From positions 24,650 through 88,649 of IMG/VR virus record IMGVR_UViG_3300036985_005327: a DNA stretch of 64,000 nucleotides; one strand, 5' to 3'. The number at the start of each line of letters is the position of its first letter. Position 1 is the first letter of the stretch. Below the pieces are notes generated by a model that was not told the origin of the DNA, ran no database searches, and saw only the letters and a program-made list of their open reading frames with translations. This document shows positions 5,703 to 29,121 of the stretch, piece after piece. The position numbers and the translations under genes were made by a program. This DNA comes from a virus.

Positions 5703-7439
5703 ATGGCAACTGACACGATGCGCCTGTTCGACCCCTATCACGGGGGGATGGATGGTACTCATTCGAATCCGTACTACCAATATTCGCAGCTCTACACGCC
5801 CAAGCGGCTGAAAGAACTGTTCATCTGGTGCGAGTATCTCTTCTACCAAAGTCCACACATTTTTGCGGCTCTGCGTAAGTTCGGGGAATACCCCATCACG
5901 AAAATTACGTACGAGACCGTAAACGAACATCTGAAAACAAAGCATAAAGAACTTCTGGAAAAGACTCTGCGCGTTCGTGAGTTTTTGATTAAGTGCTCGC
6001 TCGACAAGTATGTTTACGGTAACGCATTCGTTTCTATGTATCAACCCTTTGTGCGTTACTTAAAGTGTCCGTCGTGTTCCTCGCTCTCGAACATAAAGAA
6101 CACCACGTACACATTTGATGTTTCTAATCTCAAGTTCACCTACACGTGTCCCTCGTGCAAGAAGAGAGCAGTGGTCGGTGAGGACAACATCGAAGATCGA
6201 AAACTTCTTTTGAGCAAGGGCATCAATTTCATTCGGTGGGACGCCAAGGACCTCGACATCGATCATAATCCTCTCACGGGAGAGTCTACGTACTATTACA
6301 AGATTCCTAATGCCATCGTGTCGCGGGTTAACTCCGGTCACAAGATGCTCATCGACACCATGCCGATTGGCTTCTTAAAGGCCATCAAGGAGCACAAGCC
6401 CTTCAAGTTTGCGCGTGACGCCATCTTCCACATGAAGGTCGGCGCTCCTGCCGGTATCAATCCGCAGTGGGGACTACCGCCAATCTTGGCTGCTCTCGAG
6501 AGGTTCCACTTCACGCAGATTCTTAGGAAGGCCAACGAGGCTATCGCCCTGGACTACCTCGTTCCTTTTCGTATTCTTCACGCCTCTCAGGCTTCTGGGG
6601 TTGCTGACCCGGTTCAGCAAATTAGTCTGGCCAAGTGGAAAGACGAACTCGACATCAACATCAGGTTACACCGTAAAGACCCTCTCCATATCATGTACTC
6701 GCCCATTCCAGTGGGTATGGTTCAGCTCGGAGGACAGGGCAGAGCACTCTTGACGCTGGGAGAGATCCAGGAAGCCGAGAAGAGCATCGTAGCAACCCTA
6801 GGAATTCCCATGGAGTTCTTATACGGCGGGCTCACGGGACGCGGGATGGAAGCTACGCTGCGCATGATCGAGAACCAGCTTTCGACACACATCGCGGACC
6901 TTATCGACCTAATGCAGTGGATGGATGATAAGTGTGCGGAGTTCCTTGGTTGGGAAAAAATAACTCTAGGGCTTACGCCATTTCGAATGGTCGATGACTT
7001 CGAGAAGCAACAGCTCATGTACAGTGTCTGGCAGTCCGGAAAGCAAACGGGTTCTCAGGTCATTTCGGACACTACGATGTGCGAGATTTTTGAGATCGAT
7101 CCTAAACGGGAAGAAGAGCGCATTAAGGACGAAACTCTGCGTGGCTCGCGTATCAGCCAACAGATTCAGGCTGAGATGCAGAAGATGCAGAATAATGTCG
7201 CGCAACAGTCGCAACAGGAAGCGAACTCTGGTCCTAGCAACTACAATCAGCAGCAAGTTATCGCGAATGCTGACGGCATCCTGTCTGAGATTATGAATAT
7301 GGAATACGGCGCGAAGAAGAGCCGCCTGCACCAGTTACAGATGGAAGATTTTGTGCTGTACTCTGTGGTCATTCAGCGAATGAAACTACAGAACACTCAG
7401 ATGCTGCAACAAGACCCCGCGCAAGGACAAATGGGATGA
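5703..7439 (+). CDS. portal protein with inserted zinc ribbon
   Basis: YVYGNAFV, IFHMK...WGLPPILAAL and IVATLGIP..FLYG portal-like segments; size; first gene of the head module; CPSC-x23-CPSC insert. Confidence 0.75.
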   Translation: MATDTMRLFDPYHGGMDGTHSNPYYQYSQLYTPKRLKELFIWCEYLFYQSPHIFAALRKFGEYPITKITYETVNEHLKTKHKELLEKTLRVREFLIKCSLDKYVYGNAFVSMYQPFVRYLKCPSCSSLSNIKNTTYTFDVSNLKFTYTCPSCKKRAVVGEDNIEDRKLLLSKGINFIRWDAKDLDIDHNPLTGESTYYYKIPNAIVSRVNSGHKMLIDTMPIGFLKAIKEHKPFKFARDAIFHMKVGAPAGINPQWGLPPILAALERFHFTQILRKANEAIALDYLVPFRILHASQASGVADPVQQISLAKWKDELDINIRLHRKDPLHIMYSPIPVGMVQLGGQGRALLTLGEIQEAEKSIVATLGIPMEFLYGGLTGRGMEATLRMIENQLSTHIADLIDLMQWMDDKCAEFLGWEKITLGLTPFRMVDDFEKQQLMYSVWQSGKQTGSQVISDTTMCEIFEIDPKREEERIKDETLRGSRISQQIQAEMQKMQNNVAQQSQQEANSGPSNYNQQQVIANADGILSEIMNMEYGAKKSRLHQLQMEDFVLYSVVIQRMKLQNTQMLQQDPAQGQMG

Positions 7440-8100: not shown

Positions 8101-11100
8101 ATGACTCAGGATATCCAGCCTTTTTTGGTCAGTGCTGATATAAAACGCGAGCACATCCGCAATAAGGTTGTGGAGGGTATCCAAGAGTCATTCCCTATAA
8201 AGTCGCGCAGCAAGACTATCCACGTAAGCGACATCACTGTTCAGAACAAGGACTACTCTCCGTCTGACCAGAAGACCGCTATCATGGAAGGGAACTCCCT
8301 CTTCGAACACGTCAAGGGGACCATAACCGTTCGGGACAACGCTACGGGTGAAATTTCCGATAAGATAAAGAACTTTACCTTAGCAAAGGTTCCGTGGTTT
8401 ACGCCCCGGCATACGCTGATTGTTGGGGGCAACGAGTACTCTGTCGCGAGCATGGTGCGCCCAAAGACAGGTGTCTACGCGCGCAAACGGGCTAACGGTA
8501 TTCTTGAAGCCAATTTCAACATGCAGGGAGCCTCGAACTTCAACGTGACCATGGACCCCGAACAGGGCGAAATGCAGATCGAGTACGGAGCTTCAAAAAT
8601 TCCTCTGTACCCAATTCTTACGCGAGCAGGATTAACGCACGAAGACATCTCAACGGCTTGGGGAAAAGACCTGGCTGATAAGAACCGGCAGATGGCCCCC
8701 AAGAACGCCAGCGGCGTTGTGGACCGTTTATACAACAAGGTTGTCCCCATCTACGGAAGAGATGTCCTGAAGTTAACGACTCCCGAAGATAAGGTTAAAG
8801 AGATTTTTAACCGCTATTCGAAGGCGACAATGGACCCGGAAGTCAACAAGGTGACTTTGGGTATGCCGTATTCGAGCGTGACTCCGCACGTGATTCTTGA
8901 TGCTTCAAAGAAGGTTCTGAAAATTTTCAAGAACAGCGACGAAGTAGACGACCGCGACAACTTGGACTTTAAAGCTCTCTACGGGATCGACGATTTCTTC
9001 AAAGAGCGCATCAAGCTCGACGCTCGTGACATCGCTCGAAAAGCGTCCATAAAGATCGAGGCAAAGAAAGACCTGAGACACGCGGTCCAATCTGCTCCGT
9101 TTACTCCTGGTCTTTTGAAATTCATTAACACGTCGCGGCTTGTGTCTGTTCCTACGCAGACAAACCCAATGGAGCTCATAGACTCCTCGATGCGTATCAC
9201 CTCTCTTGGTGAGGGCGGCATCAGCTCTGAACGAGCTATCCCCATGGAAGCTCGCATGATTCATCCGACTCAGATCGGTGCCATCGACCCGATGCGTACG
9301 CCTGAATCGTTCCAGGCCGGTGTCGATGTCCGAGCGGCCATGATGCTCCATAAGGATAAGCAGGGGAACATTTACGTTCCCATGTACGACGTCAAGAATG
9401 GGAAGAAGCTCGTCTTTATCCGTGCGGGACAGATTCAAAACAACGTGGTCGCTTTTCCCCAACAGAAGCTCGAGGGTCAAGTAGACGCGTTAGTTAACGG
9501 CGTAACACGGAAGGTATCTGCGTCCACGGTGCAGTACCAGATTCCCCATTCGTCGGTAATGTACAGCCCTGCAACGAACCTTATTCCGTTCATGGAGTCG
9601 AATCAGGGTAACCGAATCATCATGGGGTCTAAGTACCAGACGCAGGCGTTGTCCTTGGTAGACCGCGACGTACCTAACGTACAGTCTATCTCGCAGACGG
9701 GTAAGCCGATGGTCACCGTAATGGCTGAGACCATTAACCCCAAGTCTCCCGTTGACGGACTCATTACGGAGATAGACAAAGACTACATCCGCATTAAGCC
9801 CGATACGGGCAAGGGTGTGGTCAGCGTTCACTACGAAACAAATTTCCCTCTGGCCGCTAAGTCGTTCCTGCACCACACGCTTAACGTACGGGTTGGTGAC
9901 CATGTTAAGCAGGGTCAAATGCTTGCTAACTCGAACTACACCAAAGATGGTCAGCTCGCTCTCGGTAAGAACTTGACCGTTGCATACATGCCTTACCGAG
10001 GTGCCAACTCCAATGACGCGGTTGTTGTGAGTGAAGGGGCTGCTAAGAAGTTAACATCTGAAAAGATGTACAAGATTATAGTAGCGCGCGACGTAGACAT
10101 GACCTTTAACAAGGACAAGCACCAAGTCTACTACGGGCACGAGTACAAGAGAGACCAGTACGGGTTGGTAGACGCTGACGGCGTAGTAAAGAAGGGCGCG
10201 AAGTTGAACGCGGGCGACCCTGTTATTTTTGGGTTACGTCAGTCAACGATGACCCCTGACGACATTTTGCTCGGGCGTCTGCACAAGTCGCTGATAAAGC
10301 CTTTTAGAAACGCCTCAGAGATATGGGACCACAACCATACCGGAGAAGTAGTAGACGTTGTAAAGACGCCCAAGAGAATTGCGATTACGATCAAGGTCAA
10401 AGAGCCTGTTGTCGTCGGAGATAAATTATGTTACGCCGTAAACACGGACATCTTAACTACCACGGGCTGGAAACCTGTAGAGAAGGTAACGGTTAGCGAC
10501 GTATGCTACACGCTGAATACTGAAGGTGTAATCGAGCTACACAATCCTACAAACGTACATGCTTATCCCCATGGGGAAGAGATGTACGAGCTTAAATCGC
10601 AACAAGTAGACCTACGTGTAACAGCTAATCACAGTCTTTTAGTTGAACTTAGAGGCACAAAAACTTTTAATTTAATAGAAGCCAGAGACGTCATTGGAAA
10701 ACGTGTACGGCATCGTAAAGATGGTGTTTGGTCATGTGGGACTACACCAAAGTTCTTTGAACTTCCTATCCTAGAAATTTTAGAAACGGGAAAAGGGTGT
10801 AAAAAGTCGCAAAAAGCAGCTAACCGACATGCTCCTATCCAAATGTTGGACTGGCTTGAATTCCTTGGAATTTATTTAGCTAATGGTTCCACTACTATTT
10901 TTAACCGAAAAGACAGAAATGGAGCTGTGGAACATATTGTACAGTTAAGTAGCGACTACGGTCAAATCCATAGTATTTCGGGAGACCAGTATGCCTGGAT
11001 TCAAGAAGTAATAGAACGCTGTGGGTTTTATTACCAGGCTATCCCAAAGGGGTTCCTTATAAAGTCAAAACAGTTAGCATGTTACCTATCTCAGTTTGGT

Positions 11101-14100
11101 AAAGCCCCTGACAAGTATGTACCCCAAGAGATTTTTACTTATGGAATAGATGCGTCAGACAAGCTTCTTGTAGGGTTGTTGGGATGTGATGGTTCACGCA
11201 CTCCCTCAGGGTCGTTAGTTTATTCGTCTGTGTCCCGTACGCTAATTGATGACGTTCAGAGACTATGTCTTCATCGCGGATGGTCTGCTAACTTTAAGAT
11301 TAGCCCTCGGACCAATTACCCTGAAACCTGGAACACATGTTATCGCGCTCAAGTTGTACAATCAAAAAATAGACCACAGGTAAATCACGGACATAGCAAA
11401 ACGCAAAGTGGTCAATCAGAACGGCTGTTTACATCTGAAGAACCTGTTTATGGTTTGACGATCCCGAACCACACGTTGTATGTGCGGCGTAACGGTAAGC
11501 CTGTCTGGAGCGGTAACAGCGGAAATTTTGGGAACAAGGGGGTTGTTTCTGAAATCATACCTGACGAGCACATGATTAAAGACGAGTCAGGGAAGCCCAT
11601 TGATATCATCGTGACCTCGGCCGGTGTTGTTGGCCGAATCAATCCAGCACAGATCCTCGAGGCTGCTGTCGGTAAAGTGGCAGCGAAGACAGGTAAGCCC
11701 GTCCTAGTAGAAAATTTCTCAAGTAGAGACAACGTCCAGTACGCAAAAGACCTACTGAAGAAACACGGAGTCAAAGACAAAGAGACAGTTTTTGACCCGA
11801 TAACGGGGAAAACTATCCCGAGTGTTTTTGTGGGTAACGGGTATTACTTCAAAGCCTTTAAGAGCACGGACGTCAACTACAGCGCCAGGAACATTGGAAG
11901 CTATGACGCGAATTTACAGCCCACCAAGGGTGGTGACGCGAGCTCTAAAGCTTTGGGTATGATGGAGTTCGGTGCTCTCGTGGGTCATAACGCTCGTAAC
12001 GTTCTGTTGGAGGCGTCTACACTCAAGAGCCAAAAGAATGATGAGTTCTGGCGCGCTCTCCAGATGGGGTACCCTACTCCTCCTCCAAAGACCTCCTTCG
12101 CTGCCGACAAGTTTATGAACATGCTCGTAGGAGCCGGGGTCAAGGTAACGCGTACGGGATCGAAGATTGCTTTGGGTCCGCTCACAGACCACGACACTAT
12201 GAAGATGTCCGCTGGTGAAATCTTGGAGCCCAAGCTTGTTAGGGCTAAGGACCTGAAGCCTGAGAAGGGTGGTCTCTTTGACCCAGGCATTACGGGTGGT
12301 CTCAAGGGAGATCGTTGGGCACACATCGATCTCGCGGAGCCAATTGTAAACCCCATTTTTGAGGAGCCCGTTCGTCGCTTTTTGGGAATGACCGGGACTA
12401 AGCTCACTGAGACTATCCACAATCAAGGTGCTGGTTACCTGAAGACAGAGCTGAACAAAATAGACCTGGATAAGAAACAGGCTGAGCTGGAAGACAAGAG
12501 CAAAAAAGCAAAGGGCTCTGACCTAGACAGCATTGTTAAGCAGCTCAAGTACATCAAGTCTCTCAAGTCGTTGAACCTGATTCCGGGTGACGCGTACATC
12601 ATCTCGAAGATTCCGGTTGTTCCTCCGCTGGTACGCCCTGTCATCCCTGGCAAGGGAGGTCAGGAGCTCATTTACGGTGACATCAATCCTCTCTATAGAG
12701 ATCTTCTTTTCGTGAACAACCAGCTCAAGGAAGTTAAGAAGGCTGGCACGATGCCTTTTGAGGAAGCCAAGCTTCGCCCGATGCTCCACCAAGCTGTTGG
12801 TGCTGTTTACGGAGTAAACGACCCTGTCACCACAAAGTCGTTAGCCCGAGGGCACAAAGGGTTCCTTACGTATATCGCGGGAGCGGGTAGCCCAAAGTAC
12901 GGATACTTCCAGTCTAAGCTGATGAAGAAGACACAAGACGTAGCTGGCCGTGGAACCATTGTCCCGGACAGCAATCTTGGCATAGACGAGGTTGGACTTC
13001 CCGAAGATATGATCTGGACGATGTACGAGAAGTTTTTGATTCGGCGTCTCGTGCAGCAGGGTTACGCACCCCTCGAAGCCCAAGAGATGATTAAGGCGCG
13101 TCATCCGCTAGCCAAAGAAGCGTTTATGCGTGAGATCAAAGAACGCCCTGTGATGATGAATAGAGCTCCCACTCTACACCGTTTTAACATCACTGGTGCT
13201 TTTCCTGTGCCAGTAGCAGGACAGACGATTCGGGTGAATCCGTTTGTTGAGATTGCCCAAAATGGTGACTACGACGGTGATTGCGCTGATTGTACCCTAG
13301 AATATGCTATTTGTATCGCAGGGAAGTATGTGCTACAAAGTCTCCACATTGGGGATTTCCCCCACAACAAGGAGACGAAGAAAGTGACTGGAAACAAAGA
13401 GCTCTACGAAGTCCCGGCGAACACGTTTGTCTTTGGCTACAGCGAGAAGAACCAGAGGGTGCAACTCTGTGAGGTGACGCACTTCTCGGTGCACCATGAC
13501 TTGGAGATGGTGAACGCCACGCTCACCAGTGGGAGGTCCGTGAAGGTTTCTCGCGACCACAGCATGTTCGGCATGAACCCGGAGACAGGTGAGCTGTCGC
13601 GGTTCAAAGCCGAAGAGGGTATTGGTTGGGGCACACCTAAACCACGCCAGTTATTCGTAGAACAAAAACGAGATTATTTAACTGACCACTGTGACGCTCC
13701 TGACCTAGAGAATGTACCGATGGACTTCAACTTAGGTTGGGTACTAGGTGCTTGGGCGGGAGATGGGTGGGTTGGTCACTCAAACGATAGCCCCAACCAA
13801 GTGTGTCTTGCAAAGGTTGACCCGCTAGTTCGGCATACATTTACGCAGCGTATGTTCCGTTATAAGGAGGACGCGAGTTTGCGTGAGTACTCGGCCACGC
13901 ATGATTACGGAGGAGGTGAGTACACTTCTACGAAAATACACATAAATAATACTAAACTGGCTAAGTGGTTTTCAGGTGTCACCGAAGGCATCCGGGGCTC
14001 CCATAACAAAAAGCTTCCTAGTTGGTTTATGCACGGTAAAGAAGATTTCCTTCTCGGTCTTCTCAGTGGATTACTGGACACAGACGGAACAGTATGCAGC

Positions 14101-14991
14101 GTAAAAGCCAAAGCAAAGAACAAGCCCCAGATTATGGCCACGTACCATACCGTATCTCGTAACCTAGCGGTGGACGTATCCACGCTGCTATGCCTTTTGG
14201 GAATCAAGTCCCGGATACACCCCTACACCAAAAAAGAGAGTCCGGGGCAAGAGTATTACAACGTTGTGATATCTGTCCCAGACCTACAAAAGGTTGCAGG
14301 ACAACTCCAGTGCGCTACAGAGTCTAAAGCCCGAGTGCTCAAAGAACTGTCTAACATCACTTTTGACCCGAGTGCTCCTGAGAATGCTCGGTGGGACATG
14401 CTCCCAATCTCTGGAGCTACGATCCAGGCGATTCGCAGTGTACAAATTTTATCGACTAGTTCGTGTGAGTATGTCGCACTAACAAAAGCGGTGAAGCTAA
14501 ATAGAATTTCTCGTGGCGTTTTGAACAAAATACGAGAACAACTCGGAGATGATTTAGTTAAGGACGTCTGTGGTGCTGCGTGGTTTAAGAACGTTACTAA
14601 CGAAAACATCATCTGGGACTTTATCGAAACAGTAGTTCCGCTTGATGAACGACAGACTGCTTGGGACATCACAGTTCCTGATGGCTGTACGTTCATGACC
14701 AGCGAGCAAATCGTTGTTTACGACACCATGATGATTCACACCCCGGTGTCAAACGCGGCGATTGAAGACGTCAAGAAAATGACGCTCTCGAACACGCTGT
14801 ACGGAGACAAATCACACAGCGACCTCTTTGTTGTGCCGCGTCACGAGTCAACAATGGGTATCACGCATGCTAGTGGTTTAGACGACCACAACAAGCCAAT
14901 TCACTTTGCGACACAAGCCGATGCTATGAAGGCGTACCACGACAGTAAAATTACTCTAGGTACCCGCGTAACGATTGGCGAGCAAAAGTGA
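8101..14991 (+). CDS. rpoBC: DNA-directed RNA polymerase beta subunit fused to N-terminal half of beta', containing two inteins (about 1452 aa after splicing)
   Basis: beta motifs: TNPMEL..MRITSLGEGG, IHPTQIGAIDPMRTPE, LIPF..NQGNRIIMGSKYQTQA, LALGKN..AYMP, GDKL/GNKGVV, RINPAQILE, SAR..GSY..QPTKGG. beta' motifs: KPEKGGLF, IPVVPPLVRP, NRAPTLHR, catalytic NGDYDGD. Confidence 0.97.
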   Translation: MTQDIQPFLVSADIKREHIRNKVVEGIQESFPIKSRSKTIHVSDITVQNKDYSPSDQKTAIMEGNSLFEHVKGTITVRDNATGEISDKIKNFTLAKVPWFTPRHTLIVGGNEYSVASMVRPKTGVYARKRANGILEANFNMQGASNFNVTMDPEQGEMQIEYGASKIPLYPILTRAGLTHEDISTAWGKDLADKNRQMAPKNASGVVDRLYNKVVPIYGRDVLKLTTPEDKVKEIFNRYSKATMDPEVNKVTLGMPYSSVTPHVILDASKKVLKIFKNSDEVDDRDNLDFKALYGIDDFFKERIKLDARDIARKASIKIEAKKDLRHAVQSAPFTPGLLKFINTSRLVSVPTQTNPMELIDSSMRITSLGEGGISSERAIPMEARMIHPTQIGAIDPMRTPESFQAGVDVRAAMMLHKDKQGNIYVPMYDVKNGKKLVFIRAGQIQNNVVAFPQQKLEGQVDALVNGVTRKVSASTVQYQIPHSSVMYSPATNLIPFMESNQGNRIIMGSKYQTQALSLVDRDVPNVQSISQTGKPMVTVMAETINPKSPVDGLITEIDKDYIRIKPDTGKGVVSVHYETNFPLAAKSFLHHTLNVRVGDHVKQGQMLANSNYTKDGQLALGKNLTVAYMPYRGANSNDAVVVSEGAAKKLTSEKMYKIIVARDVDMTFNKDKHQVYYGHEYKRDQYGLVDADGVVKKGAKLNAGDPVIFGLRQSTMTPDDILLGRLHKSLIKPFRNASEIWDHNHTGEVVDVVKTPKRIAITIKVKEPVVVGDKLCYAVNTDILTTTGWKPVEKVTVSDVCYTLNTEGVIELHNPTNVHAYPHGEEMYELKSQQVDLRVTANHSLLVELRGTKTFNLIEARDVIGKRVRHRKDGVWSCGTTPKFFELPILEILETGKGCKKSQKAANRHAPIQMLDWLEFLGIYLANGSTTIFNRKDRNGAVEHIVQLSSDYGQIHSISGDQYAWIQEVIERCGFYYQAIPKGFLIKSKQLACYLSQFGKAPDKYVPQEIFTYGIDASDKLLVGLLGCDGSRTPSGSLVYSSVSRTLIDDVQRLCLHRGWSANFKISPRTNYPETWNTCYRAQVVQSKNRPQVNHGHSKTQSGQSERLFTSEEPVYGLTIPNHTLYVRRNGKPVWSGNSGNFGNKGVVSEIIPDEHMIKDESGKPIDIIVTSAGVVGRINPAQILEAAVGKVAAKTGKPVLVENFSSRDNVQYAKDLLKKHGVKDKETVFDPITGKTIPSVFVGNGYYFKAFKSTDVNYSARNIGSYDANLQPTKGGDASSKALGMMEFGALVGHNARNVLLEASTLKSQKNDEFWRALQMGYPTPPPKTSFAADKFMNMLVGAGVKVTRTGSKIALGPLTDHDTMKMSAGEILEPKLVRAKDLKPEKGGLFDPGITGGLKGDRWAHIDLAEPIVNPIFEEPVRRFLGMTGTKLTETIHNQGAGYLKTELNKIDLDKKQAELEDKSKKAKGSDLDSIVKQLKYIKSLKSLNLIPGDAYIISKIPVVPPLVRPVIPGKGGQELIYGDINPLYRDLLFVNNQLKEVKKAGTMPFEEAKLRPMLHQAVGAVYGVNDPVTTKSLARGHKGFLTYIAGAGSPKYGYFQSKLMKKTQDVAGRGTIVPDSNLGIDEVGLPEDMIWTMYEKFLIRRLVQQGYAPLEAQEMIKARHPLAKEAFMREIKERPVMMNRAPTLHRFNITGAFPVPVAGQTIRVNPFVEIAQNGDYDGDCADCTLEYAICIAGKYVLQSLHIGDFPHNKETKKVTGNKELYEVPANTFVFGYSEKNQRVQLCEVTHFSVHHDLEMVNATLTSGRSVKVSRDHSMFGMNPETGELSRFKAEEGIGWGTPKPRQLFVEQKRDYLTDHCDAPDLENVPMDFNLGWVLGAWAGDGWVGHSNDSPNQVCLAKVDPLVRHTFTQRMFRYKEDASLREYSATHDYGGGEYTSTKIHINNTKLAKWFSGVTEGIRGSHNKKLPSWFMHGKEDFLLGLLSGLLDTDGTVCSVKAKAKNKPQIMATYHTVSRNLAVDVSTLLCLLGIKSRIHPYTKKESPGQEYYNVVISVPDLQKVAGQLQCATESKARVLKELSNITFDPSAPENARWDMLPISGATIQAIRSVQILSTSSCEYVALTKAVKLNRISRGVLNKIREQLGDDLVKDVCGAAWFKNVTNENIIWDFIETVVPLDERQTAWDITVPDGCTFMTSEQIVVYDTMMIHTPVSNAAIEDVKKMTLSNTLYGDKSHSDLFVVPRHESTMGITHASGLDDHNKPIHFATQADAMKAYHDSKITLGTRVTIGEQK
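10429..11517 (+). mobile_element. intein 1 (363 aa) with LAGLIDADG homing endonuclease, in beta GDK motif
   Basis: GDKL|CYAVNTDILT ... VTANH (block B) ... FLGIYLANG, LLVGLLGCDG ... VWSGN|S. Removal restores GDKLSGNFGNKG. DNA is more AT-rich than the flanks. Confidence 0.93.
13282..14724 (+). mobile_element. intein 2 (481 aa) with LAGLIDADG endonuclease, directly after catalytic DxDGD; atypical C-terminal Tyr-Asp
   Basis: NGDYDGD|CADC ... VSRDH ... VLGAWAGDG, LLSGLLDTDG ... AWDITVP..TF..IVVYD|TMMIHTP. Removal gives DYDGD-TMMIHTP, matching DFDGD-QMAVHVP. Confidence 0.9.
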
Positions 14992-16439
14992 ACAAGCAAG
15001 ACGTTCTAGACTACTACACTACCCCGCATATTCAGGATGCTTTACTCCGTAATTTTTATGGAGACGAAGCCCTGACGCTCGTGCAGCATGAAGAAGGGAA
15101 ACCTTTTTATCGTAGGAATCTAGACGGGAATCCAATCAAGCTGAACAACCAGGGGCAGCTTAAACGGCTACTGGACCAGCGTACAGTTGAATTTCATCCG
15201 TCGATTGGGAAGACCACGAACGTCGTGTGGGTGGATATCGATCCAGGGAAAGATGTCACAACCCATAATCTTAAACCAATCGTAAAGCAAATCGACACAA
15301 TCCTAAAGGGGATGCCTGAAGTGACACGAACGTCGCTGGCGTTCTCGGGGGGTCGGGGGTTCTATGTTCGAGGTCATCTTAAAGAAGAGATGGCTACGGA
15401 CGAGGTACAGAAACTCCTGGACGAGAAGCTGAAGAAGCTGACCGTGAGTGACCCCAAGTTGGTTATGGCTCCTCCGCAGTCTCTTCAGGTACGTCTCGAC
15501 ACCTCGACGCTTCATAACAAAGGTTCTATTCGTGGTTTGTACTCCTTGAACTCTGAGACAGGATTGGCGTCAGTGCCTCTTAAAAGGCACGAGCTCAATG
15601 ACTTCAATCCAGACACAGACGCTAATCCAAAAAGATTAATGGAAGCGGAGTTCGCTCCAGGGATACCACGTGACAAAAGAACTCATGACATTCCCACCCT
15701 TGCAGGAGCTGCTTGGACCATGTCAGTGCAGCAGCATGACGCGGTTAAAGCGGGTCCTCACTGGGATCTTCGGCTCATTGACCCGGACACGAGTCACGCG
15801 CACTCATGGGCTATCCCAAAAGCAAAGTTTCCTGAAGCAGGAGGAAAACCCCTGCTTGCTATACAGACCCCTACGCACACATCTGATTATGCTCTCCAAT
15901 TTGGAGAGAGCGGGCCTCAGCAAATACATTCGGGATACGGACGTGGCTCTGTTGAGATCAAACACAAAGAACCTATAACGGTTTTGTCGTCTAGGCTAGA
16001 TAGTCTAAAATTCGAACGAACCGTAGGTGATGCTAAAAAAGAGCGGTATGCTCTAGTTCGAACAAACAAGGACAAGTGGCTCATGCGAAATATCACTGAG
16101 AAAGTTGCTTCGTCGTTTTACTGGCAGGGCTACTTTGATACGCTCTACAAGTTAGGTGCTGAAGAGGTGAGCGGTATCGACCAAGGTCAGTCCGGTAACG
16201 CGTCTACTACAGAGTCGGGTCGCCCTATTCCTAGCAACGACGAGAACACAGGTGCGGGACAGTTAGCCGCAGTGTTTAACGAGATGAACGTAGACGGCGA
16301 GGGTGGAGAAGTTCAAGCAGACGGAACGGGCAACAAGGTAGACAAACACCTCGAGCGTCCCTCTGAGTGGGGCAATCCGTTCTCCGTGGGAACCATGAGC
16401 GGGTCTTCACCGATCATTCCGGGTGGCGGCGGTAACTGA
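14988..16439 (+). CDS. LigD-like protein: AEP primase-polymerase domain + 3'-phosphoesterase domain, no ligase domain; C-terminal low-complexity tail
   Basis: AEP: WVDIDP, FSGGRGFY, VRLD..., YSL. PE: VQQHDA...HWDLRL, HSWAIPK, LAIQTPTHTSDY, GYGRGSVEI. GTGA and TGATG overlaps with both RNAP genes. Confidence 0.85.
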   Translation: MNKQDVLDYYTTPHIQDALLRNFYGDEALTLVQHEEGKPFYRRNLDGNPIKLNNQGQLKRLLDQRTVEFHPSIGKTTNVVWVDIDPGKDVTTHNLKPIVKQIDTILKGMPEVTRTSLAFSGGRGFYVRGHLKEEMATDEVQKLLDEKLKKLTVSDPKLVMAPPQSLQVRLDTSTLHNKGSIRGLYSLNSETGLASVPLKRHELNDFNPDTDANPKRLMEAEFAPGIPRDKRTHDIPTLAGAAWTMSVQQHDAVKAGPHWDLRLIDPDTSHAHSWAIPKAKFPEAGGKPLLAIQTPTHTSDYALQFGESGPQQIHSGYGRGSVEIKHKEPITVLSSRLDSLKFERTVGDAKKERYALVRTNKDKWLMRNITEKVASSFYWQGYFDTLYKLGAEEVSGIDQGQSGNASTTESGRPIPSNDENTGAGQLAAVFNEMNVDGEGGEVQADGTGNKVDKHLERPSEWGNPFSVGTMSGSSPIIPGGGGN

Positions 16440-18244
16440 TGACAACCGAGGGAACTCCTTTTGGTCAGCATTTGATTAATGAGCTTATGCCTGAAGGGTA
16501 TAAGTTCAAAGGTCAAATAACAGGTAAAGATTTCACGGGAACAATGACCCGGTTATCAAAAACTGACCCGCACACGTACGCTCAAATTGTGGGTAACGTG
16601 AAACGGTTAGGCGACCACCTTGCTACCACGGAAGGTCTCTCGGTTGGGCTTGATGATATCGCTCCTGACTACGCTGAGCGCGCTCCGTTAATGGCTCAGG
16701 TATCTGCAAAGTTCCATAAGGCAAAAACAGATAACGAGAAGCGCACAGTATTAGAAGACGCGCACCAGGGTTTCAAAGATTTGGCTATGCGTCATCCAGG
16801 CACTATGACGCAGCAGGTTGCCTCAGGTTCTCGCGGTAAACCAAACCAGTATATGAAAATCGTAGCTTCTCCTGTGTACGGAAGAGACGGGCGTGGGAGA
16901 GTAGAACCTTGGTTAATCCGTAAGTCCTATTCAGAGGGGATGTCGCCAGCGGACAACTGGGTTGTGAGTAGCGAAGCCATTCTTGATACTATCAAGTCAA
17001 GCACATCAGTGTCTGAACCCGGTGAGCTCTCTAAGATTCTGGTCAGTAACATGAACAACATTCTAATTACTGAGCAGGACTGTGGGACGCATAACGGTAT
17101 ACTGATGGACCCTCGCGACTCAGACGTTGTTGACCGCTATCTGGCGCGTGACGTGGGTGCCTTTAGGCGTAACACCTTGATTACGCCGAACGTGCAGCCT
17201 TCTTTGTCCAAAGCGTCTTCGGGAAAGATCCTGGTTCGTTCTCCTATGACCTGTGAAGCGAGTGACGGCGTTTGCCAACACTGCCAAGGTCTTAACGAGA
17301 AGGGAAGAATGCACGACATCGGGACAAACGTAGGTGTGCGTTCGGCTCAAGCTATGGCTGAGCCACTGACGCAGCTTGCTCTGTCTGCTAAGCACGGAGC
17401 GAACACGGCATCTTCCGGGAGAATGCAGTTGCAAGGACTCTCTGGTTTTCGACAGGCCATCGAGTCTCCCAACCTTTTTATGCACAAGGCCACGCTGTCT
17501 ACTCTTAACGGCCAAGTGACCAAGGTAGAAAAAGCCCCTCAAGGAGGACACTTTGTTCACGTGGGTGACGTGTCCCACTACGCTACTCCAGGTCTGGGCC
17601 TGAAAGTAAAAGTTGGCGATTCCGTTGAACAAGGGGATGCCCTGAGCGACGGGATTCCCAAACCAAACGAGGTAGTCAAGTACAAGGGCCTGGGGGCTGG
17701 TCGAGTTTACATGGTAAATACCCTGCGTGGAATTTACAAAGACCAGGGGATCAATATTGACCAGCGCCACTTTGAGCTATTAGCTCTGGGTGAGTTGAAC
17801 CATGTCCGAATTTTGGACGATCCTGGTAAGAATTTTCTCAAAGGAGACGTTGTTCGCTACAACAACCTGAAGTCTGCGTTGTCTCAAGGGATCAAACAGA
17901 TGAGTCTCTCTGATGCTCTGGGGGAGACGTTAGGTAAAGAGTACTTTCATTTTTCTGTGGGTATGCGCGTAACGTCTTCAATGGTAGATTTTCTTAAAGC
18001 CCACGGAGTTAAGGAAGTTTTTATAGCTCCCAGAGCTCCCCAAGTTGAATTCGTAATGAAGCCAGCTACACGTGCTCCGTTGTACAACCCCGATTGGATG
18101 GCTCGGCTAGCACACAGAAACTTAAAAGTTACACTGCAGCAAGCAGCCCACTTTGGGGAAATATCCGACGTACACGGTTCTTCGCCTATTCCGGCCTATG
18201 TTTTAGGTACTGAATTTGGAAAAGGCGAAAAGGGAAAATACTAA
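16439..18244 (+). CDS. rpoC: DNA-directed RNA polymerase beta' subunit, C-terminal half
   Basis: GLSVGLDD, SGSRG, SYSEG, ITEQDCGT, VRSPMTC..GVCQHCQG (Zn site), trigger loop SAQAMAEPLTQLALSAKH, QGINIDQRHFE. Confidence 0.95.
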   Translation: MTTEGTPFGQHLINELMPEGYKFKGQITGKDFTGTMTRLSKTDPHTYAQIVGNVKRLGDHLATTEGLSVGLDDIAPDYAERAPLMAQVSAKFHKAKTDNEKRTVLEDAHQGFKDLAMRHPGTMTQQVASGSRGKPNQYMKIVASPVYGRDGRGRVEPWLIRKSYSEGMSPADNWVVSSEAILDTIKSSTSVSEPGELSKILVSNMNNILITEQDCGTHNGILMDPRDSDVVDRYLARDVGAFRRNTLITPNVQPSLSKASSGKILVRSPMTCEASDGVCQHCQGLNEKGRMHDIGTNVGVRSAQAMAEPLTQLALSAKHGANTASSGRMQLQGLSGFRQAIESPNLFMHKATLSTLNGQVTKVEKAPQGGHFVHVGDVSHYATPGLGLKVKVGDSVEQGDALSDGIPKPNEVVKYKGLGAGRVYMVNTLRGIYKDQGINIDQRHFELLALGELNHVRILDDPGKNFLKGDVVRYNNLKSALSQGIKQMSLSDALGETLGKEYFHFSVGMRVTSSMVDFLKAHGVKEVFIAPRAPQVEFVMKPATRAPLYNPDWMARLAHRNLKVTLQQAAHFGEISDVHGSSPIPAYVLGTEFGKGEKGKY

Positions 18245-18246
18245 AC

Positions 18247-18861
18247 ATGACGCCGTTTGAATCAGGTTGGGACGATGTTATTTCGGCGTTGGGTCTTACT
18301 AAAACAGCGTTGGCTGTACCCCCGGCTGCAGCGTCTCAATTGGCAGGCAAGGCGATGTCTACAGGCGTGAACGCCGCGACTAAGACCCCTTGGTACACTT
18401 CTGTGCGTAAAGGCGCGATAGGAGAACCTATCAACTTTGGTAAAGAATTACTGTCAGGTAAAGCCTTTACGCGCGAAGGTATGATGTACGATGGCTTTCG
18501 AGCTAGGTCCACTATGGACAAAGCATTGCTGTATGGGTTGCCCGCATTCATGGGGTATCAGACCATGAAAAGCGATGCCCCTGATAAAGCGCAACAGATG
18601 GGTGGTTTGGTTGCTTCTACTTTGGGTACGAACGCTCTCTTCCGACCTTTTGGTATGCTCGGAAGTATGTTAGCGTACCCAGCATTAGATAGAATAGGAC
18701 GTGGAGCGGTGAACGTAGCTCAAAAAGCCACGGGAACATTCGGTCAATCCGATGCTCAAAATCCGTACGCTTCATTCCAAAGAAAGCAACAACAACCCCA
18801 GCAACAACAGCAGCAACAACCTCAGCAATTTCAAAGAAGAGACTACGGTAGTCTCACTTGA
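18247..18861 (+). CDS. putative head-internal (ejection) protein with leader motif and poly-Q tail
   Basis: N-terminus PFESGWDDVISALGLTKTA followed by Gly/Ala-rich hydrophobic segments; position in head module. Confidence 0.55.
   Translation: MTPFESGWDDVISALGLTKTALAVPPAAASQLAGKAMSTGVNAATKTPWYTSVRKGAIGEPINFGKELLSGKAFTREGMMYDGFRARSTMDKALLYGLPAFMGYQTMKSDAPDKAQQMGGLVASTLGTNALFRPFGMLGSMLAYPALDRIGRGAVNVAQKATGTFGQSDAQNPYASFQRKQQQPQQQQQQQPQQFQRRDYGSLT
18787..18828 (+). repeat. CAA/CAG poly-glutamine microsatellite
   Basis: caacaacaaccccagcaacaacagcagcaacaacctcagcaa encodes QQQPQQQQQQQPQQ. Confidence 0.85.
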
Positions 18862-18907
18862 TATTTAGTCGTACACTTGTGAAAGGTACGCTAGGAGGAA
18901 ACGTTTC

Positions 18908-19297
18908 ATGCTCACTGCTCTTATGTTGAAACAAGCCTACGCTCATGGAGCAGCCTCTGCTCTTCGTGAGGTCGGGTATCCGCTACAAACGGCGCATAAC
19001 ATTAGCGTTAAGTTAGCAGAAGAAGCTATGAGCGCCTCCCCGCAACCCGTGATGCCGCAGGAGATGCAACCCGAGATGCAGCCTGGAATGCAGACCGAGG
19101 AAGTGCAGCCCGAGAGACACCTCTTAGGCCCCAACCCCGGAATGCAGGAACAGCAGGAATCTCCTGATGTCGGAAGCCTAGTCGAAAGCGGAGGGTTGGG
19201 CGTTCCTCAATCCCCTGAAATGCAAGAACAAGAAGCCCCTCCTGAGGCGTACGCAGATGCCACCAACGACGACATCTACGGCGCGCTTAGCGAGTAA
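18908..19297 (+). CDS. putative head-internal protein (acidic, P/Q/E-rich)
   Basis: AGGAGG RBS; LKQAYAHGAASALREVG leader; MQPE repeats. Confidence 0.6.
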   Translation: MLTALMLKQAYAHGAASALREVGYPLQTAHNISVKLAEEAMSASPQPVMPQEMQPEMQPGMQTEEVQPERHLLGPNPGMQEQQESPDVGSLVESGGLGVPQSPEMQEQEAPPEAYADATNDDIYGALSE

Positions 19298-19319
19298 CGT
19301 ACTAAAAGGAGTCAACACC

Positions 19320-20240
19320 ATGGGTCTTTTGAAGAGAGCACATGTTCGCGGTCTTAACTTTGGCCTGATGAAGAACGGGCTGGTATCTTACCCGTCTATC
19401 AAGTGGGCTAACGAAGCCGCTGACGCTGTCGCAGACGAAATTCCGGAAGAGGCTGCTCCGGAAGTGACCGATGACGCTGGCATGAGTGCCAACGAAGTCG
19501 CGCCGATCCTCCAGAAACTCGTCGAAGTGGCTCAAGCGATTGCCGCCAAGACCGAAGCCCCAATGGACGAGAACCTGAACAAGGTCTCTGCGGACCAGAG
19601 CCTCGATCTCACGAAGCTGGCGTACGCGATGGCTGAGCGTCTGATCTATAAGGCCGCTCTCGAGTCGGGCACCACGAACCCCGGTTCGGGTCCTGCCACG
19701 CACGAGCAGGTCTTTGTCGAAGGTGAGACCGACGCCGAGAAGAATCCGTCTTCGGCTGTGACGGGTCCGAAGGGTTCTTCGTCCCTCGACACCAGCGCTG
19801 GTGTCGTCGGCGCGCAGACCGTTCGCCCTGACCAACCGGGCACGCAAGATTCCCCGGCTCCGACGACGCTCGCGGATGTGAAGATCTCTTCCTTCCTACA
19901 GAAGCTGTCGAAGGACGGTACGCTTCCCCAGTCGGGTGGTCGTACGGACCTCGCCACGAACGCGAACCTGAAGGGCACCGTGGTTCCCCAGGGCACGACC
20001 AACGCCAAGACGCCGCACACACCTGTCCCGCTCCAGCGGAACCCGGCCGCTCCGCAGCCCCCGGTGAGTAACGAGATTCAGGCGGATGTGAAGAAGACGG
20101 CGGAACAGCTACTCTCGACTGAGGAAGGTCGCCAGATCCTGCTCAACCTTCATGCTCAGCAGCAGAAGCAGGCGAGTCAAGAGGAAGTCGTGGACGTCGC
20201 GACGAATATCCTTTTGAACGCCCTCAAGTCCGTTCGCTGA
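19320..20240 (+). CDS. putative prohead core/internal protein
   Basis: Start ATG 19320 after AAAGGAG; many K-x-A motifs; strong C-ending codon bias. Confidence 0.6.
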   Translation: MGLLKRAHVRGLNFGLMKNGLVSYPSIKWANEAADAVADEIPEEAAPEVTDDAGMSANEVAPILQKLVEVAQAIAAKTEAPMDENLNKVSADQSLDLTKLAYAMAERLIYKAALESGTTNPGSGPATHEQVFVEGETDAEKNPSSAVTGPKGSSSLDTSAGVVGAQTVRPDQPGTQDSPAPTTLADVKISSFLQKLSKDGTLPQSGGRTDLATNANLKGTVVPQGTTNAKTPHTPVPLQRNPAAPQPPVSNEIQADVKKTAEQLLSTEEGRQILLNLHAQQQKQASQEEVVDVATNILLNALKSVR

Positions 20241-24628: not shown

Positions 24629-25291
24629 ATGGGCCTCTTAAAAGGAGTCCTAAATTTTCCTCGTAAGCACCCTGTGGCAGCACTAGGTGTCGCGGGTACT
24701 GCAGCATCCTTATCTCCTGTTATGACTGAAGGAGGTAAATTGGAGGAAGAATCAATGAAGGGTTACACCGGTACTCCTGGCGGTAAGTACGTGTACGCCG
24801 AGCTTGAGGCTGTTGAAGAGCGCAAAGCCTTTCTCGAGAAGAAGGTCGCGTTTGAGAAAGACGCATTTACGCCTACTGTACCGAGAACCTTTGGTAGTCA
24901 ACTTACCGAAGGTCTTGGAATGGGCATCGGTAAGTCTGTGGGTCAGGCAGGCGTAGACATTATTCGCGCTCTCGTTACCGGCGTAGGTAACTCTGCTCGT
25001 TTAGGCCCCGCGACGTTGAGCCAGCAACAGAAGATGCTGGTTGCCAGGATCATCCAGAGCGACCCAATGCTCCACACCTTCGACGCTGAGAGTCCGGGTA
25101 CGTTGGAGCACGCATACACCACGATGGTGCGAACCGCTCCGCATGTCTCGGAAGACCCGAACGTAGTGCTCTCGTTCCTGCGTGAAGCTTCTCAGACAGG
25201 TGGTACGATCAACTACATGACCATGAAGCATCTCGCAGAAGCTGAGAAAGCTTTTATGGAAGCACGTAACGCCACGCGCCCGTGGTTCTAA
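24629..25291 (+). CDS. putative head-internal protein with Gly-rich hydrophobic segments
   Basis: AALGVAGTAAS, EKKVAFEKDAF, GLGMGIGKSVG. Confidence 0.55.
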   Translation: MGLLKGVLNFPRKHPVAALGVAGTAASLSPVMTEGGKLEEESMKGYTGTPGGKYVYAELEAVEERKAFLEKKVAFEKDAFTPTVPRTFGSQLTEGLGMGIGKSVGQAGVDIIRALVTGVGNSARLGPATLSQQQKMLVARIIQSDPMLHTFDAESPGTLEHAYTTMVRTAPHVSEDPNVVLSFLREASQTGGTINYMTMKHLAEAEKAFMEARNATRPWF

Positions 25292-25938: not shown

Positions 25939-28900
25939 ATGCAAAAGATCATTCATCTTGACGAGTACTTTGCTACGGGTGAAGCCACAGTACAGCCGGT
26001 GCTATTGTGGGCAAACAACCGAGCTTGCTACGAGAACATAACGAAGCACGCCAGTGTAGGTAACGAGTACTTCAAGACGATTCAGCCGGTTCCGGGTCAC
26101 AGCTTTGTTTATGTTTTGGCTGTGAGCGACTGGGAGCATTACGCTGAGAATCGTAACGGAGACGGATTCCCAAATGCACCATACAAGCCAATGGCGAGTC
26201 CTCCGTGGATCAGCCAGGCTGAGACTCTGTCGAATTGGCATCACACGTTTGAGTCAGGAAACAACTTCAGGCATCACTGCTTTACGGGGGAAACTCCTAT
26301 TTTGATGGGAGATAGAACCCGTAAGCCCATTGAGGACGTCGTAGCTGGTGACACGGTTATGACCCTTGAAGGGGCCAAAAAAGTAGTGGACGTCATGAAG
26401 CGTGAGTACGCTGGAGACGGACTATCAATTCGTTTGCACGGTAATTACACGCGAATTGACTGCACTACAGACCACCCCGTCCTGGTATACCGTCGCGACC
26501 AGGTTCATTGTCTGCATGGGTACCTTCGACTTGGCGGTATCGTCTGTAAGAAAGTATCTTGCCGAGACCTGACTACCGATATCGGTGAACCCAAGTGGAT
26601 TCCTGCGTCTGAAATTATGGTGGGGGATTACGCGGTATTTCCCAAACCAGAATTAGGAACGAAAAAAGTACCGGAGGCGTTTGCTCGTTTGATTGGCTGG
26701 GTAGCGTCTGACGGTTGTCTAGGAAAACACGGAGATATTCAGTTTACGTTTTCTTCGGAAAATACATTCAAGATAGACGCGGTAACTCAGTGTTTAAAAG
26801 ATAACGGACTAGACACAGGAATGTATCCATCAAAACTGTACGAGCGTGTTCTTCTTTCTATAACAAAGAAAGAGGTAGCAGACGAGCTGGCTAAGTATGT
26901 TACAGGCAAGAAGGCAGAGAAGAGACTTACACCTGAAGTATTTAAGCTAGACGCTGAGAGTGTGCTGCATGTCCTAGGGGCATTCTGTGACGGCGACGGT
27001 CACGTAGCGCGTACGAACAGAAATCTGGGGCAGTTGCGTATACGCTCTGCATCAGAAAGTATGTTATACGTTTTGCACGATCTCATTAGAGCCTTAGGTA
27101 TTCCTGCAACGGTACAGTGGGACGGTTTTGCACACGACTTTGAAAGTCCTCTTGAAGGATACGGGACGTACCACAGTGAGGGTTCTGGAGTCGTAGCTGT
27201 GTCGAAGGGCTACGCGGCTGAAGTGTTAGTTAATAGTGATAGGCACAAGAACTTACCTGAGCCAGGACGTAAAAACACAATTCGTATTTCGGGGTCGCAC
27301 TTTTTAGTCCCAGTGACGGACGTGGAAGAAATCACTTTGGATACGGAAGTGTTCAATCTCGAAGTTGAAGACGTGCACCACTACGTCGCCAATGGTATTG
27401 TGGTTCACAATTGTAATAAAGACCCTGAAAAACGCGTAGGCAAAGTGGTCAAGTCGTTTTGGAACGACACCATGCACCGCGTTGAGTTGTTGATTGACCT
27501 CGACAACGAGAAGGCTCCTGACCTTGCCGCCCGTATTGCTGCCGGGGAATTTCCTCCGGTAAGTATGGGTACGAAAGTATCGTGGGACGTTTGTTCTGTG
27601 TGCGGCAACAGAGCCCCTACTCGTGCTCAGTATTGTGACCACCTGCGCTTCCAGATGCGTGGGGTCATAAACGGAGTGAAGGTAGCGGCTCTTAACCCAA
27701 GCCCAAAGTTCTTTGACATCTCTTGGGTTGTGCGCCCAGCCGACCCGACTGCGTATATGATGAAAAAAGTAGCGAATGGCGTTCCATATGAGCTCATTTC
27801 CGGCGTAAAGGCCGGTGAATATTTAGACCTCATGGACGAACGTAAGCTAGCGGCGCACAAAATAGCCGTGATAGATAAGGTCGTCCAAGGAATTTCTTTG
27901 GACGCAAAGACTGAGAATGTAGACCCCACAGAGCTTGGCAACATACAACGTATGCGTAGTCAAGTTCTCGATATGGGTGGAAACGTTCCGGTAATTCCAG
28001 ACGAGACTCTGCATCATCTTTCGAGCTTCCCGTTGGAAAAGACGCTGTCGTCTGCGTTCTCCGGTGGAATGCTCTTGAAGACTCCTGAGTTGACTAAGCT
28101 CGTCTTCTTCAAGTCGTACCCTAAGCATCACCCAGAGGAAAGTTGGATTGATAAGTCCGTAGGGCTACAAGGCCCCATCATGGAGCTCATCTCGGAACAC
28201 CCACAGATTCTCGATTCTTTTGAGAATGCAGACATCTTTAACGTAAACAAAGATTCTGTGGACCCAAAGATTCTTGAGGTCTTATCCCCGTACTTTGAGA
28301 AGACTTCAGGGATGGGTGACTATCTCAAGAGAAACATTGTCCCAGAGAAGTACAGAGACGAAGGAGAGTTCACCACTCCGTTGACGATTACTGACCCAGC
28401 AACGGGCCAGCAGTATCGGACAACACGTGGTGCAGCTATTCGTGCCCATGATGAAGTGGCCAAGAGAAATCTTTACAAGACCGTTGGCGGTGCTGCTCTT
28501 TTGGGCGGTACTTACAAAGTTTTGGGCTCGGGTCTCAGCAGCAAGGGTCTTGGGGCATTAAAGCCTCTTGTTGGAGGTACTTTAGCTGCGGCTGGTCTTT
28601 CTCATCTTCCGTCTATGGGCAACCACTACATGACTGACCAGGGGGTTCCAATCTCCACAGTCACAGAGTTGTCAAAAACCTCGTCATTAGCTCTTCCTCT
28701 GTTTGGTACTTTGGGTCTGATGACGTTGCTCAGCAGCGACTATAAGTCTCGAATGGCTCGTGGTGAACCTGTTGGGCATCCGGGTCTTCCTTTGGGGCGT
28801 CGTCTTTTGGACCAAGCTGGTGAGTTCACAAACGAGCACCCCATTGCAAGTGCTGCAGTTGGTATGGCAGGGCTTCATACTTTAGGTAACAGCTTGGCGG

Positions 28901-29121
28901 GACGCGCGGCCAATAAACAGATTATTGAGCCTGGAGCTAAGTATCTTCGTCAGGGGTCTGAAGCAGCGGGTAACTGGCTCAAGCGTATGGCGGACGGAAC
29001 AACAAAACTTTCGGCTATGCTCGATGACTTGTTACCTCAGCCAACGGACACTGTTATGCTTCCTAGTCTAGACATCGAAAAAATTGCCGAGAGAATCGGT
29101 GAACTCATCGTCGAGGGCTAA
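25939..29121 (+). CDS. prohead (maturation) serine protease, HK97/herpes assemblin fold, with intein, Zn ribbon and long C-terminal extension
   Basis: NRNGDGF; FRHH (catalytic His region); GKVV; VSMG (catalytic Ser); CSVCG..YCDH; FFDISWVVRPADPTA (EvS.V..PA motif); upstream of scaffold and capsid genes. Confidence 0.85.
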   Translation: MQKIIHLDEYFATGEATVQPVLLWANNRACYENITKHASVGNEYFKTIQPVPGHSFVYVLAVSDWEHYAENRNGDGFPNAPYKPMASPPWISQAETLSNWHHTFESGNNFRHHCFTGETPILMGDRTRKPIEDVVAGDTVMTLEGAKKVVDVMKREYAGDGLSIRLHGNYTRIDCTTDHPVLVYRRDQVHCLHGYLRLGGIVCKKVSCRDLTTDIGEPKWIPASEIMVGDYAVFPKPELGTKKVPEAFARLIGWVASDGCLGKHGDIQFTFSSENTFKIDAVTQCLKDNGLDTGMYPSKLYERVLLSITKKEVADELAKYVTGKKAEKRLTPEVFKLDAESVLHVLGAFCDGDGHVARTNRNLGQLRIRSASESMLYVLHDLIRALGIPATVQWDGFAHDFESPLEGYGTYHSEGSGVVAVSKGYAAEVLVNSDRHKNLPEPGRKNTIRISGSHFLVPVTDVEEITLDTEVFNLEVEDVHHYVANGIVVHNCNKDPEKRVGKVVKSFWNDTMHRVELLIDLDNEKAPDLAARIAAGEFPPVSMGTKVSWDVCSVCGNRAPTRAQYCDHLRFQMRGVINGVKVAALNPSPKFFDISWVVRPADPTAYMMKKVANGVPYELISGVKAGEYLDLMDERKLAAHKIAVIDKVVQGISLDAKTENVDPTELGNIQRMRSQVLDMGGNVPVIPDETLHHLSSFPLEKTLSSAFSGGMLLKTPELTKLVFFKSYPKHHPEESWIDKSVGLQGPIMELISEHPQILDSFENADIFNVNKDSVDPKILEVLSPYFEKTSGMGDYLKRNIVPEKYRDEGEFTTPLTITDPATGQQYRTTRGAAIRAHDEVAKRNLYKTVGGAALLGGTYKVLGSGLSSKGLGALKPLVGGTLAAAGLSHLPSMGNHYMTDQGVPISTVTELSKTSSLALPLFGTLGLMTLLSSDYKSRMARGEPVGHPGLPLGRRLLDQAGEFTNEHPIASAAVGMAGLHTLGNSLAGRAANKQIIEPGAKYLRQGSEAAGNWLKRMADGTTKLSAMLDDLLPQPTDTVMLPSLDIEKIAERIGELIVEG
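26278..27411 (+). mobile_element. intein 3 (378 aa) with LAGLIDADG endonuclease in prohead protease
   Basis: FRHH|CFTGETPILM ... CTTDHP ... LIGWVASDG, VLGAFCDGDG ... VFNLEVEDVHHYVANGIVVHN|C. Confidence 0.95.

Follow-up and report, generated by a model that had tools for sequence, protein, structure and literature searches.

The described systems closest to the gene examined here are bacterial LigD, the stand-alone polymerases and phosphoesterases of archaeal non-homologous end joining (NHEJ), and mycobacterial Prim-PolC, which partners LigC. Among phages, the mycobacteriophages Corndog and Omega encode Ku and borrow the LigD of their host to circularise. Literature searches returned no published description of a phage LigD-type polymerase-phosphoesterase, or of a link between such a protein and RNA polymerase (RNAP). 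In this work we analyze a gene of this type in a window of 64,000 nucleotides, the whole stretch of DNA under study, which spans positions 24,650 to 88,649 of the IMG/VR virus record IMGVR_UViG_3300036985_005327. The record is an 88.6-kb viral contig, rated about 50% complete, from an uncultured phage with a genome of about 180 kb. The gene is a LigD-type primase-polymerase of the archaeo-eukaryotic primase class (AEP, here also Pol) fused to a LigD-type 3′-phosphoesterase (PE), it is encoded between two RNAP genes in the head module, and a signal in its C-terminal tail suggests that its product may be loaded into the capsid.

A fused polymerase and phosphoesterase of the LigD type

The gene and its parts are listed below; residue numbers refer to its product.

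14988..16439, plus strand: LigD-like Pol-PE gene (P0001), GTG start, 483 amino acids (aa)
14988..15677, plus strand: AEP domain of the LigD PolDom type, residues 1 to about 230 (Pfam; Foldseek matches to 2iry, 2fao, 5dmu and 6sa0; invariance)
15234-15242, plus strand: AEP motif I, D83/D85
15345-15365, plus strand: AEP motif II, SGGRGFY
15498-15500, plus strand: AEP motif III, D171
15705..16097, plus strand: LigD-type PE domain, residues about 240-370 (Pfam, Foldseek, profile, invariance)
15735-15773, plus strand: PE residues H250, H258, D260 and R262
15876-15890, plus strand: PE residues H297 and Y301
16101..16109, plus strand: K372-V373-A374, candidate prohead-protease site with putative cleavage
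16116..16157, plus strand: tail helix FYWQGYFDTLYKLG, residues 377-390, a motif shared as a tag with other proteins (structure model, conservation, reciprocal matches of hidden Markov models, HMMs)
16233..16436, plus strand: remaining tail, with two conserved short motifs (DExxPAGQLAxAL and VExRLNRxxxW...GxSPxxPG) amid disorder

An earlier note on this DNA had recognized, from its letters, an AEP domain followed by a LigD PE domain with intact motifs, and on this point Pfam, structure profiles, predicted fold and invariance among 64 family members agree. In the window protein Pfam reports only the Pol and PE domains and no ATP-dependent ligase domain: PF21686 (LigD_Prim-Pol) matches residues 50-217 at 34.3 bits, above its cut-off, and PF13298 (LigD PE) matches residues 248-324 at 28.7 bits against a cut-off of 31.1, with the relative P0036 scoring 31.9 on the same model. 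Searched as a single sequence, the protein had no match among solved structures, so the profile of the 64-member family was needed; this profile matched the PE structures 3p4h (E 4e-15), 3p43 and 3n9b (E 1e-5), as well as the LigD Pol structures 2iru (E 1e-3) and 2fao. Within residues 1-370 the AlphaFold2 model mostly has a predicted confidence (pLDDT) above 90, falling lower near 221-230 and 311-320; beyond residue 370 it shows short helices (376-388, 422-432 and 450-455) within a disordered tail. The top Foldseek matches are the LigD Pol domains 2iry and 2fao and the Methanocella NHEJ polymerase 5dmu (E about 1e-10), with the best LigD Pol matches reaching TM-scores of 0.62-0.66 on the target; Prim-PolC is also among the first matches, and the LigD and archaeal PE domains (3p4h, 3n9b) come next.

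Across the 64 relatives the AEP residues D83, D85, G121, G124 and D171 never vary and S120 is replaced in only one (Ser in 63/64), and no change occurs at the PE residues Q248, H250, H258, D260, R262, S273, H297 and Y301. The latter align to the PE domains of Pseudomonas aeruginosa and of archaea, taking in the Mn-binding His-His-Asp and the Arg, His and Tyr of the phosphate site, and mutation of the equivalent P. aeruginosa residues kills the enzyme (PMC8656161). Judged by these residues, both domains look active. The replacement of the motif II His by Tyr, which had been singled out in this gene, is real (Tyr126) but not peculiar to it: SGGRGF is followed by H in 37 of the 64 members and by Y in 27, so that Tyr is a family polymorphism and not a mark of decay.

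Neither ligase nor Ku is encoded in the window, as the earlier note had stated, and extending the search to near-complete relatives gave the same outcome. Ku (PF02735) is absent from the relatives G001-G005, in a search whose control found Ku in B. subtilis, and four relatives rated 80-100% complete contain no PF01068, PF01653 or PF09414 (ATP- and NAD-dependent DNA ligase, RNA ligase); each of the four has one LigD-type AEP. A complete NHEJ system of the phage's own is rejected, as these relatives have no Ku and no ligase of the three families.

The window protein belongs to a large family. More than 200 close relatives of 470-530 residues were found, on contigs of up to 185 kb, and an exhaustive profile search returned 2642 clusters, which include Pol-PE proteins without the tail and Pol and PE as separate proteins. 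Other architectures join the full Pol-PE-tail protein to a SNF2 helicase (P0122, 946 aa), set an HD domain between Pol and PE (P0125, 939 aa) or combine both with a GNAT acetyltransferase (P0120 and P0121, about 510 aa). Giant viral chains of 2.6-3.8 thousand residues carry ligase, ASCH, LigD-type Pol, DJ-1/PfpI and PE domains in varying combinations (P0178, P0193, P0226 and P0182), and P0178 holds all five. One giant (L061:9920-19456) is encoded immediately behind a terminase and a gene of 1428 aa with an intein, the latter probably the portal. Among distant relatives of the window phage, the AEP and the PE are encoded separately, beside portal and RNAP, and in two other lineages PE is fused to an ATP-dependent ligase-like domain with a KxDG motif in place of Pol-PE (L037:9962-11392 and L034:9611-11386). 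The distant relative G005 has no LigD-type AEP, and its PE-ligase fusion lies 6 kb from the RNAP gene. PE is the constant element, which points to 3′-end healing as the core task. Its recurrence as Pol-PE here, as PE-ligase in relatives and as ligase-Pol-PE within giant head-module proteins suggests that viruses make widespread use of the LigD toolkit in a way not yet described.

The RNAP operon and its place in the head module

The neighbours that frame the gene are the following.

5703..7439, plus strand: portal protein, 578 aa, homologue of Salmonella phage Arash gp204 (E 2e-90), start of the head module
8101..14991, plus strand: RNAP beta fused to the N-terminal part of beta′ (beta′N), with two inteins; its stop overlaps the LigD-like start
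16439..18244, plus strand: C-terminal part of RNAP beta′ (beta′C), encoding the remainder of beta′; its start overlaps the LigD-like stop

The overlaps with both RNAP genes that had been read from the sequence, GTGA and TGATG, are confirmed by coordinates: the GTG start at 14988-14990 overlaps the TGA at 14989-14991 of the upstream open reading frame (ORF), and the stop codon (TGA, 16437-16439) overlaps the start of the downstream one (ATG, 16439-16441). The arrangement also recurs beyond the window. The order portal-like gene, 191-aa gene, beta/beta′N, LigD-like gene, beta′C and tagged small protein is found in 32 of 36 IMG/VR viral loci. At the upstream junction most of 29 loci have the first LigD-like start codon within a few bases of the beta′N stop; downstream, beta′C starts -10 to +3 bases from the LigD-like stop in 28 of the 29. 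Because tight junctions are retained across loci, the coupling is a feature of the clade and not a chance property of the window.

The split of beta′ is a clean one: aligned to the continuous 2126-aa beta-beta′ protein of G005, its two parts lie end to end. In that relative beta and the entire beta′ occupy one frame (L037:2-3691), a single-chain RNAP of the multisubunit type. The beta/beta′N protein of Salmonella phage Arash ends at the homologous residue, with nine unrelated genes in the break, and Vibrio phage D181 has the same break with three tiny ORFs inside. Near-complete relatives hold one RNAP set per genome, with no second set, and have a separate primase of the DnaG type. LAGLIDADG inteins occur in beta, in beta′ just past the catalytic loop, and in the head protease (25939-29121), and their presence varies among relatives.

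The operon lies between the portal gene and those for the intein-bearing protease, a scaffold-like protein and the capsid protein, which follow downstream. Published mass spectrometry of Arash virions ranks RNAP beta first by spectral count, with 128 unique peptides, and detects beta′ as well (PMC10585845). Since this distant cultured relative packages a homologous RNAP, it is reasonable to regard the RNAP of the window clade as a probable virion enzyme. In the block just upstream of the window (L059, G000:12000-24649), PolA, a family A DNA polymerase with exonuclease, is accompanied by a 1186-aa protein with CHC2 zinc finger and Toprim domains, a PD-(D/E)XK nuclease and a sigma-70 factor bearing zinc ribbons.

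The tail motif and a proposed role of the enzyme

In the tail helix (F377-G390) K388 is invariant and G381 is present in at least 90% of the 64 members. An HMM built from residues 370-392 across the family matched, among the 511 window ORFs, the scaffold-like protein (E 1.5e-3) and a small protein at 39275 (E 3.4e-3). Among 5291 ORFs of related loci every further match lay on the coding strand, and nearly all were at the very start of small head-module proteins. The proteins of three ortholog families encoded immediately downstream of RNAP begin with aromatic-x-x-G-x4-L-x3-G followed by K-x-A, the first family lying directly after beta′C:

18247..18312, plus strand: N-terminal tag of the gene after beta′C (MTPFESGWDDVISALGLTKTAL), helix motif and then K-x-A

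The starts of the three families, at 18247-20240 in the window and at about 13200-15000 in loci L002-L032, read MTPFESGWDDVISALGLTKTA, ...KQAYAHGAASALREVG...VKLA and ...KRAHVRGLNFGLMKNG...IKWA; the first family has glycine-rich hydrophobic stretches of the kind expected in a membrane-active ejection protein. The match is reciprocal, since an HMM made only from the N-termini of the first family finds LigD-like tails in the same 5291 ORFs (E 7.8e-5, 4.9e-4, others weaker) and almost nothing besides. A conserved Met before the tail helix, and the sequence MTPF..G in some tails, resemble the start of the downstream gene. No separate small protein corresponding to the entire tail turned up in Arash, D181 or other loci, or in a search among short proteins; the helix is the one part that recurs. 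The motif is also N-terminal in a stand-alone AEP (L035), where the helix is accompanied by K-A-A, as it is in the neighbouring small-protein families. The two further tail motifs have no match in other window proteins and are unique to the LigD-like family.

In 59 of the 64 members the helix is preceded, within 22 residues, by a K-x-(A/G), compared with 9.5% of control windows. In the scaffold-like protein 9 of the 12 lysines belong to a K-x-A, and in its neighbour 6 of 7 do (60-86% across these core proteins), against about 7% in RNAP; the LigD-like protein has a single one among 34 lysines (K372-V373-A374), exactly at the border of body and tail. The N-terminal tags run helix then K-x-A, and the C-terminal tag of the LigD-like protein runs K-x-A then helix, an order that fits tag removal in both cases. 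The earlier note had taken the gene to end in a loading-signal helix behind a cleavage site at EKVA|S. The helix has stood up, being conserved and reciprocally matched to head-module N-termini; the site as written has not, for EKVA|S itself is not conserved and only the looser K-x-(A/G) is. By analogy with the propeptides of T4 and SPN3US we infer that the helix motif loads proteins into the capsid, and as the tail carries the signal of neighbouring head proteins, the LigD-like enzyme probably travels there as well.

Related signals appear elsewhere in these loci. In L034 the PE-ligase is flanked by small proteins with the helix motif, which opens one of them and stands at the extreme C-terminus of the other, and in L014 (9202-9884) two small ORFs with the motif at their N-terminus (MRTFFEEGYQAALVKLG and MCTFFEEGYRGTFEKLG) lie between beta′N and the LigD-like gene. 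Some members of the family (P0036, P0055, P0059, P0073 and others) have an N-terminal extension of 30-45 residues that begins MPY(S/A)SPAQRAAVWA, and an unrelated protein of 372 aa adjoining the PE-ligase of G005 (L037:8840-9958) starts in much the same way (MPFKSEAQRRKFHAMAARGE). Pfam gives no match, and this start may be a second shared signal.

The reading that we favour, tentatively and at a little under an even chance, is that of a capsid-loaded, ejected enzyme for 3′-end healing and gap filling that leaves sealing to the host. The protein would be made from the head-module operon together with the phage's single multisubunit RNAP, in roughly matching amounts, and its tail helix would load it into the procapsid, where the head protease would probably cut it loose from the tail at the K-x-(A/G) that immediately precedes the helix. 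Once ejected into the next cell along with the DNA and the RNAP, it would heal those 3′ ends of the incoming genome that are blocked or gapped, be they genome ends, nicks or damage inflicted by defences: the PE domain would remove 3′-phosphates and trim 3′-ribonucleotides, the AEP domain would fill short gaps or extend 3′ ends, probably with ribonucleotides, and a host ligase would make the final seal. In this scheme the loading into the capsid, the cut, the ejection, the substrate and the reliance on a host ligase are all inferred. If the enzyme is indeed carried in the capsid, these phages would bring tools for DNA 3′-end repair into the cell ahead of any gene expression, which would amount to a new class of entry-stage counter-measure against defences that nick, gap or block ends, or to a new way of preparing genome ends. 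The short helix with its K-x-A might also be put to use as a tag that directs foreign proteins into the capsids of this phage group.

Several observations weigh against this proposal. The unrelated inserts of Arash and D181 mean that position alone is no proof of a functional tie to RNAP; the beta′ break is an old, permissive insertion slot, and the position of the gene may reflect the slot only. In the 483-residue protein the motif (residues 377-390) follows the enzyme body and does not open the chain, and known capsid-targeting propeptides are N-terminal, apart in SPN3US from the protease's own C-terminal one (PMC10052503). Some 90 further conserved residues stand behind the helix, beyond the needs of a disposable tag. 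HMM searches in both directions found no helix motif in the RNAP subunits, and the scaffold match was not recovered by the tail-helix HMM in relatives G001 and G003, whose scaffolds show GY-rich repeats by eye. No cultured phage carries the LigD-like protein in tblastn searches, and the operon has no megablast match either. Finally, the contig ends of two near-complete relatives, with no terminal repeats or shared ends, do not point to any particular DNA lesion or end structure.

Alternatively, the protein could be an unpackaged cytoplasmic enzyme that repairs phage DNA or fills its gaps, with roles such as excision-type repair or work at stalled forks. It would then owe its place to a slot that tolerates insertions in an operon with strong expression, and the tail motif would serve some other common partner. 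We judge this unlikely, though it would accommodate the unrelated genes and tiny ORFs that occupy the break in Arash and D181, the presence among the structural neighbours of mycobacterial Prim-PolC, a short-gap repair polymerase, and the long tail with its extra conserved motifs. It accords less well with a tight coupling to both RNAP genes that has held across a deep clade, and with the separate AEP and PE genes of distant relatives, which also adjoin portal and RNAP; the N-terminal helix and K-A-A of the stand-alone AEP in L035 and the recurrence of the same modules in giant head-module proteins tell against it too.

A working partnership with RNAP, co-packaged or not, is less probable again. 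Here the AEP would make or extend RNA primers for RNAP or work on R-loops, and PE would trim RNA 3′ ends, in the service of transcription or of transcript-primed replication. Relatives with the same RNAP manage without the gene, as no match exists in the phage collection including Arash and D181 and G005 lacks a LigD-type AEP; G005, moreover, has an unsplit 2126-aa beta-beta′ with its PE-ligase 6 kb away, and the sigma-70 factor encoded nearby makes ordinary transcription initiation available. These facts run counter to what suggests the partnership, namely a gene inside the polymerase operon at a clean beta′ break, with coupled translation and one RNAP set per genome, and an enzyme type whose polymerases prefer ribonucleotides and whose PE is a 3′-ribonuclease (PMC8656161). 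We hold similarly doubtful a related reading, in which Pol-PE would be a stoichiometric, co-packaged partner of the virion RNAP, loaded by the C-terminal helix and, once injected, mending or priming with it the DNA that is transcribed first. Were it true, the tail would be the first C-terminal capsid-targeting signal on an enzyme cargo, and the pair a transcribe-and-mend machine of entry.

That the gene encodes the replicative primase of the phage is very improbable and we reject it: although relatives are labelled 'DNA primase' in some databases and AEPs are common as phage primases (PMC5862659), the nearest folds are repair polymerases and not replicative primases, the obligatory PE partner fits end healing, and the DnaG-type CHC2 and Toprim protein adjoining PolA in the replication module leaves the LigD-like AEP unneeded in that role.

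Comparison with known systems

Bacterial LigD (M. tuberculosis Rv0938 and that of P. aeruginosa) shares with the capsid-loaded enzyme proposed here the AEP fold and catalytic Asp residues and the PE fold, with equivalents of His42, His48, Asp50, Arg52, His84, Tyr88, Gln40 and Ser61. The phage protein differs in being viral and encoded in an RNAP and head operon, in having no ligase domain and no Ku in the genome, and in its 110-residue tail with three short motifs; in its family the motif II His is often Tyr, and two extra residues separate the first two PE histidines. The archaeal stand-alone NHEJ polymerase and PE (Methanocella paludicola 5dmu and 5dmp; Korarchaeum PE 3p4h), which supply the best PE matches by both sequence and fold, are likewise modules without a fused ligase, but they use Ku and a separate ligase encoded nearby, and the phage has neither. 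Prim-PolC (5op0, 6sa0) belongs to the same AEP clade and acts on short gaps, which it fills, yet it has no PE domain and is cellular, not viral.

Polyvalent proteins, the internal proteins of T4 and the ejection proteins of SPN3US and phiKZ are, like the LigD-like protein, encoded in the head module and carry a short signal beside a protease-type site (PMC5512222, PMC10052503). For the phage enzyme, packaging is a prediction. Polyvalent proteins have many effector domains per chain and are encoded with portal and terminase; the window protein has two enzyme domains, and relatives of both domains sit in giants of 2.3-3.8 thousand residues, one of which is encoded just after terminase. The survey of polyvalent proteins lists neither LigD-type Pol nor PE (Iyer et al. 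2017, PMC5512222). A further parallel is found in the primases of conjugative plasmids, Sog of R64 and TraC1 of RP4, polymerases that are delivered with incoming DNA and act before new gene expression (cited in PMC5512222). Unlike the protein described here, these are Toprim primases that prime the complementary strand on single-stranded DNA and have no phosphoesterase. Corndog and Omega offer a viral analogy, as they too encode part of an end-joining kit and take the remainder from the host, but the division is the opposite one: they bring Ku and borrow Pol, PE and ligase, and the phage of this window brings Pol and PE.

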